Virus record (IMG/VR): IMGVR_UViG_646862326_000012
Coordinates: 1-43,504 of that record
Source: a virus
Lineage: Duplodnaviria; Heunggongvirae; Uroviricota; Caudoviricetes
DNA: 43,504 nt
Direction: 5' to 3' (one strand)
In this document: positions 1 through 43,504 of the stretch, one piece after another
Layout: each line of letters begins with the position of its first letter
How positions within the stretch are numbered: position 1 is the stretch's first letter
Program-made: the position numbers and the translations under genes
Notes under the pieces: model-generated
Databases searched by the model: none
What the model saw: the letters and a program-made list of their open reading frames with translations, nothing else
What the model was told of the DNA's origin: nothing

Positions 1-1224
1 ATGGCGCTGTCTGATGCGTGGTTGCGTTCAGTCGTTGGAAAGGAACGTGATAAGGTTTTGGTTAAATCCGATCGTGATGGTCTGTCTGTCAGAGTATCAC
101 CGAAAGGTCGCGTAGTGTTCCAATATCGTTATCAATGGGCAGGGAAAGGTGAGCGCCTTGATATCGGAACTTACCCGGCAACTGGATTAAAAGAGGCCAG
201 AGAAGAGGTTATCCGTCTCCGTGGTGAACTCGAGTCAAACCGCAATCCACGATTAGTCAAGCAGGCTGAAAAACGAAAAGCTACTGAAGCCATGACGGTA
301 GAGTCTGTGATCCGTGCCTGGTATGAAGCATATTGTGTAAAAAATAAAAAAGGTTCTGAACAGATACTCCGCTCGTTTGAGCTGCACCTGTTCTCTAAAA
401 TCGGGAATATCCCTCACGATGCAGCTACATTGCATGATTGGTTAGAAGTCCTGGAGCCTCTTAGCACTAAGACTCCAGCAATAGCAGACCGATTGCTAAT
501 TAACGCAAAGCAGGCCCATGTCTGGGCGTATAAGAGAAAGCTCATTGAAACTCGCCCGCTGTCGGATATCACGGGTAAAGATATGGATATCCGTAAAGGT
601 CAGAAGAAACGGTTTCTGACACATGATGAAATTAAAATCCTTTATGCTGCGATCGATGGTTCTCGAATGGTTCCTAAATACCGGGCCTTCATTAAACTAT
701 TGCTGCATTTTGGCTGCCGTAGTTCAGAGCTAATTACCGCCAGGGTGGACGATTTTGATTTCATTAATAAAGTATGGACTGTACCACCAGAACGACATAA
801 GACTGGGGAGATAACAGGCGAACCGCTAAAGCGGCCCATTATTGAACCGGTTGAAGAGCTTATAAAGTACGCTATTTCTATGAACAATGGTTCCGATATG
901 CTTTTTACTAAGGAAGGAAGCAGGGAACCCGTTGGTCGGACATCATTGCAGTCGCTGCCTTACAATTTAATGCAGTACGCATGGCGGCGTTTGGGGTATC
1001 AATTCCCTCATTGGTCTCTTCATGATTTGAGGCGAACAGCACGAACAAACTTTTCTGATCTTACTGCGCCTCATATTGCAGAAATAATGCTAGGTCATAA
1101 ACTGCCAGGGGTATGGCAAGTTTATGACAAGAGCGATTATCTAGAAGAACAGCGTAAAGCCTACCAGGCATGGTGGGAGAGAGTTGAATCGATTGTTACT
1201 TGTTCTGGTTCAGACACCAACTGA
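1..1224 (+). CDS. int: Tyrosine site-specific integrase (P4-type)
   Basis: 407-aa ORF. N-terminus resembles P4-family integrases; C-terminal region has the catalytic-type residues (HDLRRT, final tyrosine region). Position at the prophage left end. ORF starts at window base 1, so attL is outside the window. Confidence 0.9.
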   Translation: MALSDAWLRSVVGKERDKVLVKSDRDGLSVRVSPKGRVVFQYRYQWAGKGERLDIGTYPATGLKEAREEVIRLRGELESNRNPRLVKQAEKRKATEAMTVESVIRAWYEAYCVKNKKGSEQILRSFELHLFSKIGNIPHDAATLHDWLEVLEPLSTKTPAIADRLLINAKQAHVWAYKRKLIETRPLSDITGKDMDIRKGQKKRFLTHDEIKILYAAIDGSRMVPKYRAFIKLLLHFGCRSSELITARVDDFDFINKVWTVPPERHKTGEITGEPLKRPIIEPVEELIKYAISMNNGSDMLFTKEGSREPVGRTSLQSLPYNLMQYAWRRLGYQFPHWSLHDLRRTARTNFSDLTAPHIAEIMLGHKLPGVWQVYDKSDYLEEQRKAYQAWWERVESIVTCSGSDTN

Positions 1225-1396: not shown

Positions 1397-2650
1397 ATGA
1401 AAGTCGAAATGAATACTAAACTTTTGGCCTATTTAAACAATGAGTTACATGGAGTGTGGATAGATAGTGAAAATCGTAATATCCACATAATACTTAAATC
1501 AAGCCTTCCTATAATTAAATCCGTCTGGTCAGGAGCACCTATCCACTTTTTGGTAGGTTTATCTACTAAAAATATACTAGTGATTGGGATGTTGATTGAA
1601 GATAATGTCGATAATCCATTTTTACTAGCCTATCCACCAAGAGAGGCAGATGAAATTAAAGGGCTGGATTTGTTATTGTCAGGCGCTTATGATGGTATTC
1701 TATTATCATTTTTTGACTCGCATACAATGCGTGTTATGGACCTGAAAATAAAAGTTTCGGAAAATTTACCGTGTGAATGTTTAAAAAAATTTTGTGCTAA
1801 TTCATATTCTCTCAATTCAGGATTTAGGGAAGGTAATGAAGCAATGGATGAATTCTGCAACAATGCTTTGACTGGTAACGAGAAAATAATTAGTCTGCCA
1901 CTAAGTGTAATCGATAAAAAATCTTACCTAGCAAGTGTTCATGAACCAAACGATACCGTATTAACATATGAATTTAGCGTCAGTGAAAACGGCTCTGAGG
2001 GATATGAGCAGGAAGCTCTTATATACCATGCTTTGCGGCAGGTCTTTTCACCGGAGGAAGTGTTTTTTTCTCCAGATATTATTGAGGGTAATAAAAAAAG
2101 AGAATTAGTTGATATTCTTATTGTAGAAAATGACTATGTATTATCTATACAGTCTAAAGCATCATCTTTGATTGAAATGGGTTTAAAATCTCATGAAAAG
2201 CTTTGTAGCATGTATAAGAAAAAAGCATTGCAAGGGATCGATCAGGTTAAAGGCGTTATCCCAATTCTAAATAATGATGTGGTTATTAATTATGACGGGA
2301 GGGAATGCTTAATAAAGCGCAGAAAGGGTATTTATCATTTAGTGATAATCTCAGATCTTGTTTTAGAGAAAGAAGGTGCTGAAAAGATTTATAACGAAAT
2401 TAGCAACCTTAAAGAGTCAAAAGGGGCGAAAGTTTTAGTTATGAGCCTTGAAGGTCTTGTAAATTTTATAAGACTATCAAGATTAAATAAAAGAATGTTT
2501 TGGGCAATGCTGGAGACTAAATACAAGTTCAGCATAAAAAACCGTACAATTTTAATTAGAGATATCGACTCTAGCCAAGAGAATAATCTACCATTACTTG
2601 CCACTGATCAATACCTATCACTTCTTCGAGGTGCGGGAAAAGTAAAATAA
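1397..2650 (+). CDS. Hypothetical AT-rich cargo protein (417 aa), possible nuclease-like core
   Basis: Long ORF in a markedly AT-rich island between int and xis. AAGGAA ribosome-binding site 7 nt upstream of the ATG. Residues 239-254 (VDILIVENDYVLSIQSK, nt 2111-2158) resemble a degenerate PD-(D/E)xK-type motif. No family recognised. Confidence 0.6.
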   Translation: MKVEMNTKLLAYLNNELHGVWIDSENRNIHIILKSSLPIIKSVWSGAPIHFLVGLSTKNILVIGMLIEDNVDNPFLLAYPPREADEIKGLDLLLSGAYDGILLSFFDSHTMRVMDLKIKVSENLPCECLKKFCANSYSLNSGFREGNEAMDEFCNNALTGNEKIISLPLSVIDKKSYLASVHEPNDTVLTYEFSVSENGSEGYEQEALIYHALRQVFSPEEVFFSPDIIEGNKKRELVDILIVENDYVLSIQSKASSLIEMGLKSHEKLCSMYKKKALQGIDQVKGVIPILNNDVVINYDGRECLIKRRKGIYHLVIISDLVLEKEGAEKIYNEISNLKESKGAKVLVMSLEGLVNFIRLSRLNKRMFWAMLETKYKFSIKNRTILIRDIDSSQENNLPLLATDQYLSLLRGAGKVK

Positions 2651-3130: not shown

Positions 3131-3474
3131 TGTTGACCCTCCTGTGGTTGTGCAGTTGAAAGACTCATGCCCGCGCGTTGTTGCCAGACGACCCAGCCGA
3201 GAGCCATATCCCACGCCATGTACTCGTTATCACCGTTTTTTGCTCTCCGACGATCGACTGTTTTACCGAAACGCTTTTCCATAAATAATTCATAGGCTGC
3301 GCGTTCATCTGGCTCAACTTCCAGAGATGCCAGTGCAATCCGTGCCAGTTCTAAATCATCTTCAAGCTCAGCGCGAATCTCAGCGAATGCACTCTGTGTT
3401 AAGGCGAACTCAATGCTCTGCACTTTATTCCGTGCGCGCTCAAGCAGTGCATGGTAGTTAATTTCGGTTGTCAT
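3127..3474 (-). CDS. Hypothetical early-left protein (115 aa)
   Basis: ORF with AGAGG ribosome-binding site; translationally coupled within the leftward operon. No recognisable motif. Confidence 0.55.
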   Translation of the reverse strand: MTTEINYHALLERARNKVQSIEFALTQSAFAEIRAELEDDLELARIALASLEVEPDERAAYELFMEKRFGKTVDRRRAKNGDNEYMAWDMALGWVVWQQRAGMSLSTAQPQEGQQ

Positions 3475-4349
3475 ACCCCTACCTCTTCGAATTTCAATTC
3501 TAATTGATCACCCCAGATTTCACATGACTCTGAACACGAGCCGGTATCGAATCGCCTGGCCTGTACCATCGCCTGATACAAATTTCTGTAGTCGCTGTTG
3601 GCAGACATTCTGGCAATTCCGTCAAGCGTCAGGTGACCACGGTACATAACGTCTTTACCTGTTCTGCGATGACCATCCCTGACGTGTTTGCCTGTAACCA
3701 GCTCATTAAAAACTCGCATCAGACCAGGTTCGTCTTTACATGCAAGCCCCAGCTTTTGCGTTGACTTTTTGATGCAGAAAACACAGTTCCCGAGATGCTC
3801 CGGGATTTGCAAATCAAAAGGTTGTTTTCGCCACCACCGGATAACATCCGACTTATCAAAATCTGACAGTTCGGCAAGATACCGGACGCCCGATTTCGGT
3901 TTCAGCCTACGGGGTTCGTCTGCACGAATACCCAGCCATGTGATGTAATTACCTCGCCCGAAATGGTTATCGCAGTATTTCGTGAAAGGGATGAGTTTTA
4001 GCCTGTCAGTACAGAACGCGCCGCCGATGTATGGCGTGCCGTACTTTTTAACCATGTCCATAAACGGTTTAAGTACCGGCATTCGCGTCTGAATATCCTT
4101 TGGCTCCCATTCTGTATAACCATTTGGCTGCCCAAGCTCAGGATTGATATCGACCTGCAACACAGTTAGTGGTATGCCCCAGAACTTCACAACCTCCCGA
4201 ATAAAGCGGTATGTCAGCGGATGTTCGCAACCGGTATCCATAAAGATGTAGCAGACGTTATTGCCAGCCTTTCTTTGTTCTTCCATCAGGTGAACAAGAT
4301 ATGCAGATGTTCTCCCGCCGGAAAAACTAACTACATGAGTTATGCACAT
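3471..4349 (-). CDS. PAPS reductase-family PP-loop ATP pyrophosphatase-like protein
   Basis: 292 aa. N-terminal SFSGGRTS matches the PP-loop (SGGxxS) of the PAPS reductase / sulfate adenylyltransferase superfamily. GGAG ribosome-binding site; overlaps the stop of the upstream gene. Confidence 0.75.
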   Translation of the reverse strand: MCITHVVSFSGGRTSAYLVHLMEEQRKAGNNVCYIFMDTGCEHPLTYRFIREVVKFWGIPLTVLQVDINPELGQPNGYTEWEPKDIQTRMPVLKPFMDMVKKYGTPYIGGAFCTDRLKLIPFTKYCDNHFGRGNYITWLGIRADEPRRLKPKSGVRYLAELSDFDKSDVIRWWRKQPFDLQIPEHLGNCVFCIKKSTQKLGLACKDEPGLMRVFNELVTGKHVRDGHRRTGKDVMYRGHLTLDGIARMSANSDYRNLYQAMVQARRFDTGSCSESCEIWGDQLELKFEEVGV

Positions 4350-4876
4350 TTGCGTAACTCCGATAACTCGTTAAAACGTTCCATAAACATCCCGTAGGCA
4401 TGTCCTGGTGCCAGTGGAATCACTTTGAACATCTCTGTTGCCGGGATACCTTCCAGTACAGGCCAGAAAGAGCCATCATCAAGCCCGAGATCGCGGCGTT
4501 CGGTTGCCAGCATAATGAGATCGGCATATTTCACTGGCGTGCTCATAACAGGAGGTAACCCGTATTTCTCACGGATTACGGCGTCTATTTTTTCTTCCAT
4601 CTGTTTATAGTCAGGAAGAAGGCGTTTCAGTGGCGCGGGGATGTCCTGACAATACGCTTCTGTTGCATCATGCATTAACGCTTCAAAAGCAAACTCCTCC
4701 GGAACCAGTTTGCTGCAAAGCACCGCATGTTGGGCGACGCTGTAGAAGTGTGAAAGATGACCGGCAAAGCGACAGATATTTGAAAGGGAAACTGCGATAT
4801 CGTTAATCGCGATGTCGTCTTTATTTATCCTGTCATAATAAAAATGCTTCCCGGAAAAAGTTTTAATAAATGACAT
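4340..4876 (-). CDS. yfdR: HD-domain phosphohydrolase (5'-deoxynucleotidase YfdR-like)
   Basis: 178 aa from the internal Met MSFIKTF (GGAGAA ribosome-binding site). H..HD motif (LMHDATEAY). Length and architecture match the CPS-53 prophage YfdR as remembered; the symbol is tentative. Confidence 0.7.
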   Translation of the reverse strand: MSFIKTFSGKHFYYDRINKDDIAINDIAVSLSNICRFAGHLSHFYSVAQHAVLCSKLVPEEFAFEALMHDATEAYCQDIPAPLKRLLPDYKQMEEKIDAVIREKYGLPPVMSTPVKYADLIMLATERRDLGLDDGSFWPVLEGIPATEMFKVIPLAPGHAYGMFMERFNELSELRKCA

Positions 4877-5004
4877 TTTGTTCTCCACTTTATATGCGCT
4901 GCACCGCGCTGAATTTTGGTTAAAGAAAACCCTCGCCATCAGGCGATTATTGAGTTAATTACGTTTCCATAAATGCCCCCGCAGGGGCATTTGCAGTAAT
5001 GAAA

Positions 5005-5829
5005 TCAGGCGGTGAAAGTACCAATAAAGGTTTCTACTTTGCTGTCTTTGAATTTTTCAACAAGCAGATCACGAAATTCGTTAGCCATTTCTTCCTGCAC
5101 TGCTTCCAGCTGAATAATGCGCAGAACCAGTACAGGGCGATCACCAGTGATAATGCTGAGGCGTAATTTAAACGGACGTTCTTTCAGGCCTTCAAACGGA
5201 ACGCATTTAAACTCAAATGCTACTGGCATAATGTCTTTGGTTTTCGCTTCGACAGACTCCATCAGAGAGCGTTTGCCGCTGAAGTCATTGTCTTCAAAAT
5301 CAGCGGTCTGGTTTGCTTCAATCGTGATTTTACGGACCGCCGCAGCCGCTTTTGTTGCCTGAATGGCGTCACCATTAGCATCAAAGCCCACAAGGTAGTC
5401 GGCCCAGTCTTCAATCCATTCTGCCAGTGACTTCTGGGAGTTACGCTCGCCGTTAACAGACAACAGGGCAGAGAACGGTGCTGTCTTTTTCAGTTTGAGA
5501 GTGGCGGTGTTATCTGCGTGACCTGGTTCGTCAATAGTACCCAGGTTAAGCACACTGACGGCTCGCATATTATCAGCATCGATAAAGCAGCGGGTGCCTT
5601 CATCTGCAAGATCTTTAGAATAACGGGTAAAGTCATCGATGCTGGCAGTGGAAAGCGCACCACGGAAACGGAAGCGATTTAAATTAAATTTTTCCAGATC
5701 ATGAATGCGGAAATTCTCAGGCAATGCCACAGCATCGGCACCAATCTTACTGATAATTTCATTAACACCCTGAGCAGAAATAAGGGCATGGATTTGATTA
5801 ATTGCGGTTGCGTCTAAGTTCTGAGACAT
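5005..5829 (-). CDS. yfdQ: DUF2303 (YfdQ-like) prophage protein
   Basis: 274-aa ORF, same length and operon position as YfdQ of the K-12 CPS-53 prophage. Assignment is from memory of the family, not a search. Confidence 0.6.
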
Positions 5830-6924: not shown

Positions 6925-6962
6925 TTTTGGATACATTATGTATCTCATAGGTACATTGTCAA
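6925..6962. promoter_or_regulatory. Candidate left operator / pL region
   Basis: Perfect 15-bp palindrome GATACATTATGTATC (6930-6944) plus an adjacent GGTACATTGT half-site. Lies just beyond the cI terminator, the expected OL/pL position. Confidence 0.4.
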
Positions 6963-6965
6963 GTA

Positions 6966-6990
6966 TAAAAAAACCTGCCGAAGCAGGTTC
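6966..6990 (-). terminator. Rho-independent terminator after cI
   Basis: Hairpin cctgc-cgaag-caggt followed by a T-run on the minus strand, immediately downstream of the cI stop. Confidence 0.55.
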
Positions 6991-7001
6991 ATAAATATTG
7001 A

Positions 7002-7676
7002 TTAGGCCTTTATTGTGTATCTTCTTGGTTTTCCCGAGAAAATCACTGTACCAATTATAGAGCAATTACCGTTAATCTTAATGTAAGGCTCAGGCCAGTT
7101 TGGGTTTAATGCTTTGAGATAACGCTGTGTTCCATCTTCTATCAACCGCTTGAAGGTGGTTTCGCCTGAATCGTGCATCAATGCAATAACGTCGTCACCG
7201 TGGCAGGCAGGGACTTCAGGATCAACAAAAATCATGTCTCCCGGGCGGTACTCATCAATCATTGAATCACCAATCACCCGCAAGATATAAGTCATTTCGC
7301 CACAGGGTACAGGGCAGGGATAAGTTTCTGCTGTGCTCAAATCAACCTCAGAATAGCCAACTTCTTTCCATGCTCCGGCCTGTACCCATGATATGACAGG
7401 GACTAACGTTATTTGTTTGTTAGTGATTGAAACATCAGGTTTTTTTGTGATGTTCGTGGTCTGGTGTTCTTGATCAAGCCATCCGACAGGCAGGTCGAAA
7501 CATTTTTCGATGTGCCTTGCCATGCTGTCACCGATATTTTTAGTAGCACCATCTCCCATAAACCTGCTGGTCTGGGTTGGCTCGCGATCAATCATGGTGG
7601 CAAAGGAAGAATTCCCGCCAACACCATCTCTCAGTTTTCTGGCGTTAGACCGCCGGATGTCATGGACTGTTTTCAT
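7002..7676 (-). CDS. cI: CI-type prophage repressor (HTH + S24 LexA-like peptidase domain)
   Basis: 224 aa. C-terminal RVIGDSM motif (S24 serine nucleophile context) and an Ala-Gly (QAGAW) candidate autocleavage site. Divergent from the cro-like gene. Confidence 0.9.
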   Translation of the reverse strand: MKTVHDIRRSNARKLRDGVGGNSSFATMIDREPTQTSRFMGDGATKNIGDSMARHIEKCFDLPVGWLDQEHQTTNITKKPDVSITNKQITLVPVISWVQAGAWKEVGYSEVDLSTAETYPCPVPCGEMTYILRVIGDSMIDEYRPGDMIFVDPEVPACHGDDVIALMHDSGETTFKRLIEDGTQRYLKALNPNWPEPYIKINGNCSIIGTVIFSGKPRRYTIKA

Positions 7677-10441: not shown

Positions 10442-10930
10442 ATGAGTCTTTTGAATGAAGTTCAGAAATTCATTGAAGCCCATCCGGGGTGTACTTCCGG
10501 AGACATTGCGGATGCTTTTGCAGGTTACTCACGGCAGCGCGTTCTGCAGTCAGCAAGCAAGTTACGTCAGAGTGGGCGTGTGGCTCACCGTTGTGAAGGA
10601 GATACACGCAGACATTTCCCACGCCTGACTGAGAGAGCGCAGGAGCCGGAACCACAACCAGTTCGTGAAACCAGACCTGTGCGCAATTTCTATGTCGGCA
10701 CTAACGATCCCCGGGTGATTTTGTGCCTGACCCGCCAGGCGGAAGAACTGGAGTCCAGGGGCTTATACCGTCGTGCTGCAACGGTGTGGATGGCGGCATT
10801 CCGTGAAAGCCACTCCCAGCCAGAACGAAACAATTTTCTGGCGCGTCGTGAGCAGTGTTTACGGAAAAGCAGCAAGCGCGCTGTATCGGGTGATGAGTGG
10901 TATCTGTCAGGGAATTACGTGGGGGCTTAA
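10442..10930 (+). CDS. Hypothetical regulator, possibly PerC-family-like C-terminus
   Basis: Start at ATG 10442 with AGGGGG ribosome-binding site. N-terminal winged-helix-like segment; C-terminal LESRGLYRRAATVWMAAF resembles the PerC/Pch family motif as remembered. Weak. Confidence 0.4.
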   Translation: MSLLNEVQKFIEAHPGCTSGDIADAFAGYSRQRVLQSASKLRQSGRVAHRCEGDTRRHFPRLTERAQEPEPQPVRETRPVRNFYVGTNDPRVILCLTRQAEELESRGLYRRAATVWMAAFRESHSQPERNNFLARREQCLRKSSKRAVSGDEWYLSGNYVGA

Positions 10931-11583
10931 TGAGTAATAAATATTGCCAGGAGCTGGTGGAACTGCGGAACAAACCAGCCCATGAACTGAAGGAAGTGGG
11001 TGATCAGTGGCGCACGCCGGACAACATTTTCTGGGGAATTAACACCTTGTTTGGCCCGTTTGTTCGGGATCTGTTTACTGACGGTGATAACGCCAAATGT
11101 GCTGCGTATTACACGGCGGAAGACAACGCGCTGGCGCATGACTGGTCAGAACGTCTTGCGGAGCTTAAAGGTGCTGCCTTTGGTAATCCCCCATACAGCC
11201 GCGCCAGTCAGCATGAGGGGCAATACATCACCGGCATGCGTTACATCATGAAACATGCCAGTGCCATGCGTGATAAAGGTGGGCGCTATGTTTTCCTGAT
11301 CAAAGCTGCCACCAGCGAAGTTTGGTGGCCGGAAGATGCAGACCATATTGCTTTTATTCGCGGGCGTATTGGTTTTGAACTGCCAGCCTGGTTTATCCCG
11401 AAGGACGAGAAGCAGGTGCCGACAGGCGCTTTCTTCGCTGGTGCTATTGCTGTTTTCGACAAGACCTGGAAGGGACCGGCAATCAGCTACATCGGGCGCG
11501 ATGAACTTGAGGCATGTGGTGAGGCCTTTCTGGCGCAGGTTCGCCAGCAGGCGGAAAAACTGGTCAGGGAGATGGCGGCATGA
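10930..11583 (+). CDS. Phage N6-adenine DNA methyltransferase (Dam-like)
   Basis: 217 aa; NPPY catalytic motif (FGNPPYS) diagnostic of N6-adenine/N4-cytosine methyltransferases. TAATG overlap with the upstream gene. Confidence 0.85.
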   Translation: MSNKYCQELVELRNKPAHELKEVGDQWRTPDNIFWGINTLFGPFVRDLFTDGDNAKCAAYYTAEDNALAHDWSERLAELKGAAFGNPPYSRASQHEGQYITGMRYIMKHASAMRDKGGRYVFLIKAATSEVWWPEDADHIAFIRGRIGFELPAWFIPKDEKQVPTGAFFAGAIAVFDKTWKGPAISYIGRDELEACGEAFLAQVRQQAEKLVREMAA

Positions 11584-36823: not shown

Positions 36824-37423
36824 ATGCGTAAATTATGTGCTGTTATTCTGTCCGCAGTAGTCTGGCTGGTTGCCGCTGGTACGCCAGCGAGCGCAGCAGA
36901 GCATCAGTCCACACTAAGCGCCGGGTATCTTCAGACCCATACTGATATGCCAGGCAGCGATGACCTGAAGGGCATTAACGTGAAATACCGTTATGAATTT
37001 ACGGACACGCTGGGGCTGGTGACGTCATTCAGCTATGCAGGAGACAAGAATCGCCAGCTTACCCGTTACAGCGATACCCGCTGGCATGAAGATTCCGTTC
37101 GTAACCGCTGGTTCAGCGTGATGGCGGGGCCGTCTGTGCGCGTGAATGAATGGTTCAGCGCGTATGCGATCGCGGGTGTGGCTTACAGCCGTGTGTCGAC
37201 TTTTTCCGGGGATTATCTTCAGGTGACCGACAACAAGGGGGATACGCACGATGTGCTGACCGGAAGTGATGACGGTCGCCACAGCAACACGTCTCTGGCG
37301 TGGGGGGCTGGCGTGCAGTTTAACCCGACCGAATTCGTGGCCATTGATATTGCTTATGAAGGTTCCGGCAGTGGCGACTGGCGCACTGACGGTTTCATCG
37401 TGGGTGTCGGTTATAAATTCTGA
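36824..37423 (+). CDS. lom: Lom-like outer membrane beta-barrel protein (Ail/Lom/OmpX family)
   Basis: 199 aa; signal peptide (AAGTPASA); alternating amphipathic beta-strand pattern ending in ...VGVGYKF, typical of the Ail/Lom family; same position as lambda lom. Confidence 0.85.
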
Positions 37424-41604: not shown

Positions 41605-42981
41605 CTATGATATTCCTGAGATATCCTCTTCAAGCTCTTTTACTGATTTCGCAATTTTAAATTTAAACTTCCTCTCTATTTCACTATTGCTAAGTTTTTT
41701 TTCCTTCTCTTTACCTATCCACATAGAAACAAGTTCTCGTTTCTGAGATATATGTAAATTATCAAAGTTAGGTATGTATTTAAAAGTCTCCGCTCTACCT
41801 CTGCGGAGTTCATAGAAAGTTTTAATTAAAGACTTTGGTTTTATTTCTGATGAAAGGCCGAATCGGCGGATAAGATTATTGATAGTATGATTAACAGAGC
41901 GAAGTTGAGCTGTTGAGGTTATTTGTGAGAAGTACGATACCCATCCCAATCGTTTACCTTCAAACACACATCCCGTAATTCTGAGATTTAGTTTCCACTG
42001 ACAATATGCAACAGCTCGTTCTTTATCACGCTTACTTTTAGCTTGTAGTAGAGCGTGCCTGTATGCAGTAAAAATCCTTGCTAAAGATGACTCAAATCTA
42101 AGAATGCTCTCATGTTTTATCAATAATTCTCGATTTTCTATGTGGTATCCCAAAAAGTTAAAACTTTCATCCAAGCTGCCTACTTTGGATTTTGAGTTCT
42201 CTTCATTTAATGGATGTGGGTTTAAATTTAATGATTGAAGCTTATCAATGATATGAGAAGCTATTTTTGTTGCTTGATATTTTGGTGTTAAAATAAGAAT
42301 GTCATCAACGTATCGCATGTACCATATGTCATGCATTTTATTGATTTCATCATCAAAATTAGATAGTGATATTTCAGCTAAAATGTTTGATATCGCTAAT
42401 CCCTGAGGTACTCCTCTGGTATTATTCGGGATACCTTTGCTTCCTGTTGTTCCACTTACAGTAGGCACGATTAATGATGATGTTATTAACTGTCTAATTT
42501 CTTTTTTTCTAATTTTATTTTTTATTGCATTAATTATCAATTTATGTTCAATTGAAGGATAGAAACTTTTAAGATCTATTTTTGCATATTCAGCATAAAG
42601 ACTGCTGTTTAATGCTTCTTTCAATGAGTCAATTACTGTATGTGGTAGTTTTAATCTGGAGTTAGGATATATTTCCGTAAGGCATTCACAGAGAGCTCTA
42701 AGAGTAATTCTGTCCCTAGCAGTTGGTATGGAAATCTGTCTGGGTGTAGAGTTAGCGCCTTTAGATATTAATTTTTCTTTATATGCTGTAAATTTGTAAT
42801 TGCCAGAGTTAACCTTTTCAAAAATGAAAGCGATCTCATTTTTTATTGTCAAATCAAGTTTTGATGGGCGAATCCGATCTATGCCAATCGCTCCTGATTC
42901 TTTGATTTTTTCAGTGTATACTTTTAGAAGGTTTTTTTTCGAGAATGACTTTTTAAAAATTCTGCTTGCAGTCATAGTCAA
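41605..42981 (-). CDS. Reverse transcriptase (defence-associated / Abi- or retron-like RT) with approx. 200-aa C-terminal extension
   Basis: 458 aa, AT-rich. RT motifs readable in order: IPTARDRITLRAL (motif 1/2), IDLKSFYPSI (motif A aspartate), GVPQGLAISNILAEISL (motif B), YVDD at residues 224-227 (nt 42301-42312, motif C), FLGYHI (motif E-like). Unclassified C-terminal region. Confidence 0.85.
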   Translation of the reverse strand: MTMTASRIFKKSFSKKNLLKVYTEKIKESGAIGIDRIRPSKLDLTIKNEIAFIFEKVNSGNYKFTAYKEKLISKGANSTPRQISIPTARDRITLRALCECLTEIYPNSRLKLPHTVIDSLKEALNSSLYAEYAKIDLKSFYPSIEHKLIINAIKNKIRKKEIRQLITSSLIVPTVSGTTGSKGIPNNTRGVPQGLAISNILAEISLSNFDDEINKMHDIWYMRYVDDILILTPKYQATKIASHIIDKLQSLNLNPHPLNEENSKSKVGSLDESFNFLGYHIENRELLIKHESILRFESSLARIFTAYRHALLQAKSKRDKERAVAYCQWKLNLRITGCVFEGKRLGWVSYFSQITSTAQLRSVNHTINNLIRRFGLSSEIKPKSLIKTFYELRRGRAETFKYIPNFDNLHISQKRELVSMWIGKEKEKKLSNSEIERKFKFKIAKSVKELEEDISGIS

Positions 42982-43504
42982 TCCAAAGATATATTAATGG
43001 GAGTATATAAAGGGCGGCAGTAGTAAATATTCGAAGTAATATCCATAAAATAACAATTATTTTTTCTTTTTGTGTGGGGATCCTCGTCGTAAGTCCAACT
43101 TGAGTTACCCTTGAAATTTTATCATCTATGTCACGGTGATTCTCAACCTCATTGAGCAAATTAAAATATTTTTCTTTCTGTTCAAGAGTTAACTGTTGAC
43201 TGGTGGTAATGTCAAAATAGAGTCGCTGTAGTGCAATATAATTCCTTCTCATGGCTATTGCTCGACCACGAAAATCTAGGTTAGATACGATCAGCGAAAT
43301 ACCCAGTAGGGCCACCGAAAGTATTGCCGCAACGATATCTGTGTTATCTCCTAGAACTTTTGGAAATCGCAACGTTACAATTGAAAGTACCGCACTCAAT
43401 ATAGCATACCAAACGAGGATAAATTGAGAGTGCTTTTCAAGCCATTCTAGTCGATGGTGCGCTTGGATACGGGCTTTATATGTAAACCAAATATTGTCAT
43501 GCAT
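42953..43504 (-). CDS. Multi-pass membrane protein upstream of and overlapping the RT (possibly truncated at the window edge)
   Basis: At least 183 aa, with 3-4 predicted TM helices (FILVWYAILSAVLSIVTL; IVAAILSVALLGISLIVS; IIVILWILLRIFTTAALYILPLIYLWI). Its 3' end overlaps the RT start by 29 nt, so co-transcription is likely. The ORF reaches the last base of the window, so the true start may lie beyond it. Confidence 0.6.
   Translation of the reverse strand: MHDNIWFTYKARIQAHHRLEWLEKHSQFILVWYAILSAVLSIVTLRFPKVLGDNTDIVAAILSVALLGISLIVSNLDFRGRAIAMRRNYIALQRLYFDITTSQQLTLEQKEKYFNLLNEVENHRDIDDKISRVTQVGLTTRIPTQKEKIIVILWILLRIFTTAALYILPLIYLWIDYDCKQNF

Follow-up and report, generated by a model that had tools for sequence, protein, structure and literature searches.

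A lambda NinC ortholog beside yfdP-yfdQ-yfdR at an apparent mosaic junction in the early-left operon of an Escherichia coli prophage

To interpret an early gene cluster in a 43,504-nucleotide (nt) stretch of viral DNA (IMG/VR record IMGVR_UViG_646862326_000012, positions 1 to 43,504; hereafter the window), a lambdoid prophage of Escherichia coli, we analysed three minus-strand genes of its early-left operon, which encode a PP-loop protein of the phosphoadenosine phosphosulfate (PAPS) reductase fold, an HD-domain 5'-deoxynucleotidase and a DUF2303 protein. On balance, we lean slightly towards a reading in which this operon, of the CPS-53/KpLE1 type, is a mosaic junction of two independent cassettes, such that the three genes do not belong to one pathway. 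One cassette would be yfdP-yfdQ-yfdR (with yfdT), a conserved early module that, on induction, may damp host chromosome initiation in the phage's favour; the other would be an ortholog of lambda ninC, occupying the slot held by yfdS in E. coli K-12 and coupled to yfdR, a yfdT-like gene and xis. NinC would be an ATP-dependent, probably iron–sulfur (Fe-S), adenylating or sulfur-transfer enzyme, whose target might be DNA or the phosphorothioation machinery of the host and which would thereby keep modification-dependent restriction away from phage DNA; with no DndD/E or SspB/C partners among the strong hits in the phage, such an enzyme would borrow host factors such as IscS. The locus itself is already known: annotations of the three genes exist across thousands of E. 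coli genomes, one of the genes is lambda ninC and work in K-12 has addressed the other two.

The conserved unit and its junction with ninC

The three minus-strand open reading frames (ORFs; 3471-4349, 4340-4939 and 5005-5829) assigned to these families in a preliminary description of the window are present, with agreeing profile matches, and the HD and DUF2303 proteins proved to be YfdR and YfdQ themselves (relative to K-12 CPS-53, YfdP and YfdQ were 99% and YfdR 96% identical, the last over 178/178 amino acids (aa)). DNA-level homology to K-12 (96.7%) extends from upstream of yfdP and ends at position 4342, the yfdR stop codon, after which K-12 continues with yfdS (DUF551), whose overlap with yfdR is the same 10 nt as that of ninC. 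Because the homology ends at the yfdR stop and the overlap is the same, ninC and yfdS appear to be alternative inserts at one mosaic joint. The gene order of CPS-53 (KpLE1), yfdP-yfdQ-yfdR-yfdS-yfdT, is thus shared with the window except that yfdS stands where the window has ninC; CPS-53 is moreover a remnant, whereas the window prophage appears complete. A separate protein of 294 aa (P0141) combines DUF551 (YfdS-type) and PAPS_reduct domains; 86% identical to the window NinC across 88% of its length, it seems to have arisen by recombination between the two cassettes that alternate behind yfdR.

Surveys from both sides of the joint gave concordant pictures. Among yfdQ loci representing 80 bacterial species (one locus per species, YfdP and YfdR counted over all ORFs), 79 had YfdP, 57 had YfdR and none had a NinC-clade gene, and the gene after yfdR was hypervariable (an Rv2179c-like exonuclease, an integrase, DUF1482, DUF551, a single-stranded DNA-binding protein (SSB) and others). 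Of 5,426 complete E. coli genomes, 2,453 carried yfdQR and 422 the window ninC allele; the whole block was found in 271, only ~11% of the genomes with yfdQR. Of note, 72 of the 460 places matching the ninC allele were on plasmids, and the two plasmid records listed had no yfdR. For NinC, the loci that an alignment of the family first picked up in viral contigs were all at least 93% identical, and divergent queries were then added, yielding 215 unique loci that formed 49 clusters at 90% identity. YfdQ and YfdR were absent from 47 of these clusters, the two exceptions being the E. coli cluster to which the window belongs and a singleton that is a truncated copy of the window allele. What is conserved as a unit is yfdP-yfdQ-(yfdR), separate from NinC; it also takes in yfdP, upstream of the interval (3471-5829) within which a three-gene module had been proposed.

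Within the operon, overlaps form a chain from yfdR into ninC (10 nt), from ninC into the yfdT-like gene (ATGA) and from there into xis (ATGA), and, as read from these frames, translational coupling by overlap would be confined to yfdR-ninC-yfdT-like-xis. A start for yfdR at 4939 was dropped in favour of the ATG at 4876, which has a GGAG ribosome-binding site ahead of it and gives a protein of 178 aa, the same as in K-12 and RefSeq. The gap from the yfdQ stop (5005) to this start is 128 nt and holds two hairpins, one (4975-4988) being GCCCC-TGCG-GGGGC and the other (4933-4946) resembling a terminator, its stem followed by a T-rich tail; because of this gap and its hairpins, yfdQ and yfdR are not translationally coupled, so that of the coupling first claimed for the whole trio only the yfdR-ninC part stands.

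The alternative that YfdQ, YfdR and NinC constitute one early nucleotide- or DNA-modification pathway (YfdR providing or removing a nucleotide intermediate, NinC adenylating or thiolating it and YfdQ acting as scaffold) has several observations in its favour, which weigh correspondingly against two independent cassettes. The 10-nt overlap of yfdR and ninC is one; another is that their joint is common within E. coli (YfdR in 60 of the 86 unique loci) and is seen with at least three immunity types, the yfdPQR-ninC block recurring in 271 complete genomes; a third is a prophage in an Atlantibacter metagenome-assembled genome (L098:7744-9569), in which a distant phrog_424 member follows a truncated yfdR. 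That YfdR lacks the HD motif; the next gene, overlapping yfdR by 4 nt, encodes a PP-loop (FSAGKDS) protein of 414 aa from the same PHROG as NinC, outside the NinC clade. Against a single pathway, NinC-clade genes were missing from every one of the 80 species loci and YfdQ and YfdR from nearly all NinC clusters, homology to K-12 stops precisely where yfdR ends and yfdS has an identical overlap, the whole block occurs in a small minority of the E. coli genomes with yfdQR, hairpins separate yfdQ from yfdR, and lambda has NinC without YfdQ or YfdR. We consider a single pathway quite improbable, and the nucleotide-chemistry module first suggested for the trio is not supported.

Activities and distribution of YfdP, YfdQ and YfdR

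Given how closely the proteins resemble their K-12 counterparts, published data on DnaA binding and inhibition of initiation should apply to essentially the YfdQ and YfdR of the window. Extra copies of yfdQ and yfdR together with yfdS or yfdT suppress over-initiation and inhibit initiation at oriC, and purified K-12 YfdR binds DnaA domain I, where Phe46 is important; DiaA and DnaB share the Phe46 patch with YfdR, which moderately inhibits those interactions (Noguchi and Katayama, PMC4776307). A Wood-laboratory preprint additionally reports that YfdQ production triggers plaque formation by a resident phage. Weighing against a role of the module in replication, deletion of yfdQRST had no initiation phenotype, the replication effect being seen only at raised copy number (PMC4776307). 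For the K-12 proteins, then, the documented biology of the YfdQ/YfdR pair is interference with host replication, not DNA modification; the preliminary description had placed the trio where lambda carries recombination and host-takeover genes, and what is reported for YfdR and YfdQ is itself host takeover (PMC4776307).

The enzymatic side of YfdR was examined by comparison with YfbR, the housekeeping HD 5'-deoxynucleotidase of E. coli. Both are HD phosphohydrolases for which phosphatase activity on deoxynucleoside monophosphates (dNMPs) is reported, and YfdR differs in binding DnaA and in a nucleotide affinity much below that of YfbR (PMC4776307, citing Zimmerman 2008), which argues against the earlier suggestion that the HD enzyme reshapes deoxynucleoside triphosphate pools. 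The HD residues (H...HD...D) of the window protein are intact (AQH, MHD, QDIP), and its sequence is only distantly similar to YfbR (Pfam YfbR-like 25.2 bits, just under the cut-off of 25.9; NCBIfam 20.7 against a cut-off of 122; PDB 2paq, E=0.4), the closest solved relative being the HD protein Atu1052 (PDB 2gz4, E=1e-13). Homologs of YfdR were found in 333 phage records, virulent jumbo phages among them; no T5-group phage was among 40 records listed as a spread sample of the 333, which is not decisive, and an idea involving T5 Dmp was dropped. PADLOC gave no hits for YfdQ, YfdR, YfdP or the yfdT-like ORF.

Beyond E. coli, yfdP is the near-obligate upstream partner of yfdQ, and the pair is kept from Enterobacterales to phages of Xanthomonas, Pseudomonas and Vibrio. 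In Xanthomonas phage CP2 and Xylella phage Usme it heads the early operon just upstream of Erf, an exonuclease and SSB, and in Shiga toxin (Stx)-type phages its place is after the genes for a YqaJ exonuclease and an SSB-like protein; CP2 ORF38, which also precedes the yfdQ of that phage, is 39% identical to the window YfdP, and YfdQ of the CP2 group is ~35% identical by alignment to that of the window. The window YfdQ matches DUF2303 (PF10065) over profile positions 2-269 of 269, and its AlphaFold2 model (predicted local distance difference test (pLDDT) 77) had no informative neighbour among solved folds. By sequence, YfdQ matches PDB 9o7m ('YfdQ Protein'), an entry of 36 identical chains that share 98.8% identity with a protein from Xanthomonas phage MET23-P3 (in the CP2/MET23-P3 group, the CP2 counterpart is ORF37, L375:3068-3892). 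Sequence searches of PDB with YfdR, YfdP, CP2 ORF38, CP2 ORF36 and the CP2 major capsid protein placed none of them in 9o7m, and we found no paper citing 9O7M, the structure apparently being unpublished. Conceivably, the yfdP-yfdQ pair, with the large YfdQ assembly seen in 9o7m, is a new machine for early host takeover or anti-defence. Whether or not yfdR accompanies it, this early phage module has been little studied, although it reaches virulent-type Xanthomonas phages and has a solved structure.

The PP-loop protein as NinC

By direct comparison, the product of the gene at the junction is 79% identical to lambda NinC (nin290, lambdap64), with 285/290 aa aligned gap-free, and it matches the phrog_424 profile at E=8e-92; a protein search of phage genomes also recovered a 79%-identical gene in phage O276, labelled 'Lambda gp NinC' and lying between ninB and ninD. 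Because lambda has NinC too, encoded in its nin region, the contrast that the preliminary description drew between lambda and this phage is wrong for ninC. The lambda protein has the same length, PP-loop, DTGxEH motif and six-cysteine pattern, and differs in where its gene lies: the lambda gene is in the nin region, the window copy in the leftward operon between yfdR and the yfdT-like gene and xis. There is no ninB in the window, so that the nin-region placement next to ninB, a feature of context and not of the protein, is absent here. Across an alignment of 33 NinC sequences that includes the window protein and reaches down to 51% identity, the SxSGGRxS loop (SFSGGRTS, residues 8-15 of the window protein), DTGxEH and six cysteines (C113, C126, C189, C192, C272 and C276) are invariant, the last four forming a CxxC (189-192) and a CxxxC (272-276) pair. 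A confident AlphaFold2 model (pLDDT 87) has an adenine-nucleotide alpha-hydrolase fold. The invariant cysteines and ATP-type loop are compatible with a [4Fe-4S] cluster and ATP pyrophosphatase activity.

Similarity to phosphorothioation enzymes is partial. The best-scoring specific defence profile on NinC was PADLOC SspD (E=3.4e-15, 54.5 bits), which matched only over profile positions 2-125 of 277, whereas DndC profiles were at noise level (E=0.0065 and 0.0076, ~13 bits, no stretch passing alone). NinC shares with DndC/SspD the PP-loop fold, the ATP-type glycine loop and conserved cysteines, and differs in matching only the N-terminal half of SspD and in its size (~290 aa against the 468-481 positions of the PADLOC DndC profiles). 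No DndA/B/D/E, IscS, SspA/B/C/E or DpdA-like partner was among the strong PADLOC or Pfam hits for the 50 largest ORFs of the window (for PADLOC, the best 25 of 87 matching families, beyond which weak hits may lie); nor does anything tie the three genes to the 7-deazaguanine pathways earlier named in connection with the PP-loop fold, neither a DpdA transglycosylase nor preQ0 synthesis genes having been found in the phage. The anti-Dnd protein JSS1_004, considered as a possible relative, is a kinase/shutoff protein unrelated to NinC.

A link to DNA came instead from the company that NinC keeps. Domains of the NinC type are fused to three unrelated DNA methyltransferase families, PF05869 (phage Dam), PF02086 (D12-class) and PF00145 (C5); among the 49 clusters, NinB was adjacent in 5 and PF05869 Dam adjacent in 11 and fused in 8, counts that are not population estimates and are enriched for Dam fusions because one query (P0201) was itself such a fusion. 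Two IMG/VR proteins of 968 and 1,099 aa (L244:2582-5488 and L284:2402-5701) have three domains, in the order C5 methyltransferase, NinC-type domain, and Dam or D12. In Vibrio phage 44E38.1/.2, p0018 is a PAPS-reductase domain fused to Dam; over its N-terminal 280 aa, identity to the window NinC is 55%. This gene and its upstream neighbour p0019 (DUF6475) mark phages that kill Dnd-carrying Vibrio, and a sensitive phage into which both were recombined grew on a Dnd+ host (Piel et al. 2022). The window phage, too, encodes a Dam of family PF05869; in 44E38 one polypeptide stands beside the DUF6475 gene, whereas here NinC and Dam are separate and in opposite operons, so that the anti-Dnd effect is known for the fused form and the window has the stand-alone form. 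Because the same methyltransferase family is fused to NinC-type domains in other phages, the window Dam is a possible, though unproven, functional partner of NinC. K-12 YfdM (91 aa, 'putative methyltransferase', L377:6113-6388) is a truncated N-terminus of this Dam, 98% identical over 89 aa.

Several points count against an anti-restriction function of NinC. Lambda ninC, and indeed the whole nin region, is dispensable for plaque formation; DndBCDE-DndI still restricts lambda to some degree, and the lambda used in that work presumably carried ninC, unless the laboratory stock was nin-deleted. We know of no biochemistry on record for any NinC, and lambda, to our knowledge, has no methyltransferase of its own, a lack because of which NinC would not be strictly dependent on a methyltransferase of the same phage. 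In the Vibrio experiment, the NinC-Dam fusion moved together with p0019, and the share of the PAPS domain was not isolated (Piel et al. 2022). An anti-restriction role nevertheless seems plausible for NinC alone, with the methyltransferase fusions and the Vibrio result in its favour, so that the DNA-modification or anti-defence function first proposed for the trio survives for this one gene and not for the three together. The role is unproven and the idea is already in the literature: a 2026 paper, citing the Vibrio experiment, suggests that the PAPS reductases of phages may be DndC/SspD homologs put to a new use, the evasion of restriction-modification or phosphorothioation systems (PMC13551039). 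A bolder version, which we regard as a long shot, is that the NinC family, lambda's included, consists of stand-alone, DNA-directed PP-loop/Fe-S enzymes that lay down a sparse DNA mark (phosphorothioate-like, or a thio or amino base) or hijack IscS-Dnd/Ssp, disarming modification-dependent restriction. If true, a lambda nin gene held to be 'non-essential' for 40 years would act in anti-defence, and the chemistry of lambda DNA would not be plain; the three families of methyltransferase fusion, the Vibrio anti-Dnd result and the near-canonical ATP loop with its six cysteines make NinC open to simple lambda genetics.

Other roles for the protein were weighed against the same evidence. The main rival is that NinC modifies RNA, by thiolation or another change of transfer RNA (tRNA) in the manner of NcsA, TtuA or TilS, tuning translation or resisting tRNA-targeting defences; it holds this place because tRNA thiolases are equally close to NinC in fold, and the invariant CxxC and CxxxC pairs would suit it. 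The repeated fusion of homologs to methyltransferases of DNA, their position beside NinB in the DNA-transaction nin region, the anti-Dnd genetic link and the standing of SspD as the best specific model all argue for a DNA-related target, and we give an RNA substrate only a small chance. The database name 'phosphoadenosine phosphosulfate reductase' raises the further possibility of an auxiliary metabolic gene, that is, a true CysH-like PAPS or adenosine phosphosulfate reductase boosting sulfate assimilation during infection. The Pfam PAPS_reduct (PF01507) match (E=1e-8) covers only profile positions 2-65 of 175, however, NCBIfam CysH (PRK02090) reaches 20.2 bits where its cut-off is 154, the 292 aa contain no catalytic ECGLH motif (the C-terminus has CSESCE) and the glycine loop is SGGRTS, of the ATP type, where CysH has SSSFGIQ; a CysH identity is scarcely credible. 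Finally, the genes could be largely neutral mosaic passengers and the multicopy yfdQRST phenotype an overexpression artefact, as the dispensability of the nin region, the lack of a replication phenotype on yfdQRST deletion (PMC4776307) and the cryptic state of CPS-53 would allow. Retention of six invariant cysteines and the motifs in NinC homologs down to 51% identity, conservation of yfdP-yfdQ across distant phage groups and the spread of YfdR homologs as far as virulent jumbo phages speak for function; neutrality seems unlikely. We retain the two-cassette reading, with NinC acting separately from YfdP, YfdQ and YfdR.

The prophage around the operon

The window holds an integrase, a cI-like repressor and lambda-type terminase, head, tail and lysis genes, and, judged by its lambda-like head, tail and lysis genes, the prophage appears complete (Table 1). 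Several complete E. coli chromosomes match the 3.6 kilobases around yfdPQR-ninC at 100% identity, and the RefSeq names there are YfdP, YfdQ family protein, yfdR 5'-deoxynucleotidase and 'phosphoadenosine phosphosulfate reductase domain-containing protein'. The strong pL-like promoter lies just past the repressor gene, and its position therefore fits the early-left placement given in the preliminary description.

Table 1 Features of the early-left operon and related genes in the window
Feature	Position	Strand	Basis or remarks
Integrase	1-1224		
xis/torI-like excisionase, 64 aa	2936-3130	-	phrog_1553, E=8e-35; start overlaps yfdT-like stop (ATGA)
yfdT-like, 115 aa	3127-3474	-	73% identical to K-12 YfdT over 79 aa; phrog_660; start overlaps ninC stop (ATGA)
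ninC, lambda NinC ortholog, 292 aa	3471-4349	-	PP-loop, PAPS-reductase fold; six invariant cysteines
yfdR, HD-domain 5'-deoxynucleotidase, DnaA-binding protein, 178 aa	4340-4876	-	96% identical to K-12 YfdR; phrog_318, E=2e-110
yfdQ-yfdR intergenic hairpins	4933-4988	-	Sequence reading and terminator scan
yfdQ, DUF2303, 274 aa	5005-5829	-	Pfam E=2e-92; 99% identical to K-12 YfdQ
yfdP, 120 aa	5895-6257	-	99% identical to K-12 YfdP; phrog_204
pL-like sigma-70 promoter, TTGACA-16-CATAAT	6935-6962	-	Consensus scan, 11/12 matches; just downstream of cI-like gene and hairpin; putative function, from position
Terminator-like hairpin of cI-like repressor gene	6971-6990		
cI-like repressor gene	7002-7676		
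Phage Dam, PF05869, right operon	10930-11583	+	Pfam Dam, E=2.5e-44

Three further loci in the window lie outside the operon. Between the integrase and xis, a 417-aa ORF (orf417; 1397-2650, plus strand) of 37% guanine–cytosine (GC) content matched only phrog_30399 and nothing in Pfam, NCBIfam or PADLOC; its appearance is that of a moron, or inserted accessory gene. At the low-GC right end (41605-43504, minus strand), RT_UG17 (458 aa, PADLOC E=5.9e-159, full length) is followed by a reverse transcriptase (RT)-associated SLATT protein (E=7.9e-57) whose gene runs off the end of the window, and this defence-associated RT cassette probably serves as an anti-phage system carried by the prophage. The tail genes include, as those of lambda do, a gene for an outer-membrane protein of the Ail/Lom family (Pfam E=4.7e-121), which, from its position, is probably the ORF at 36824-37423 on the plus strand.

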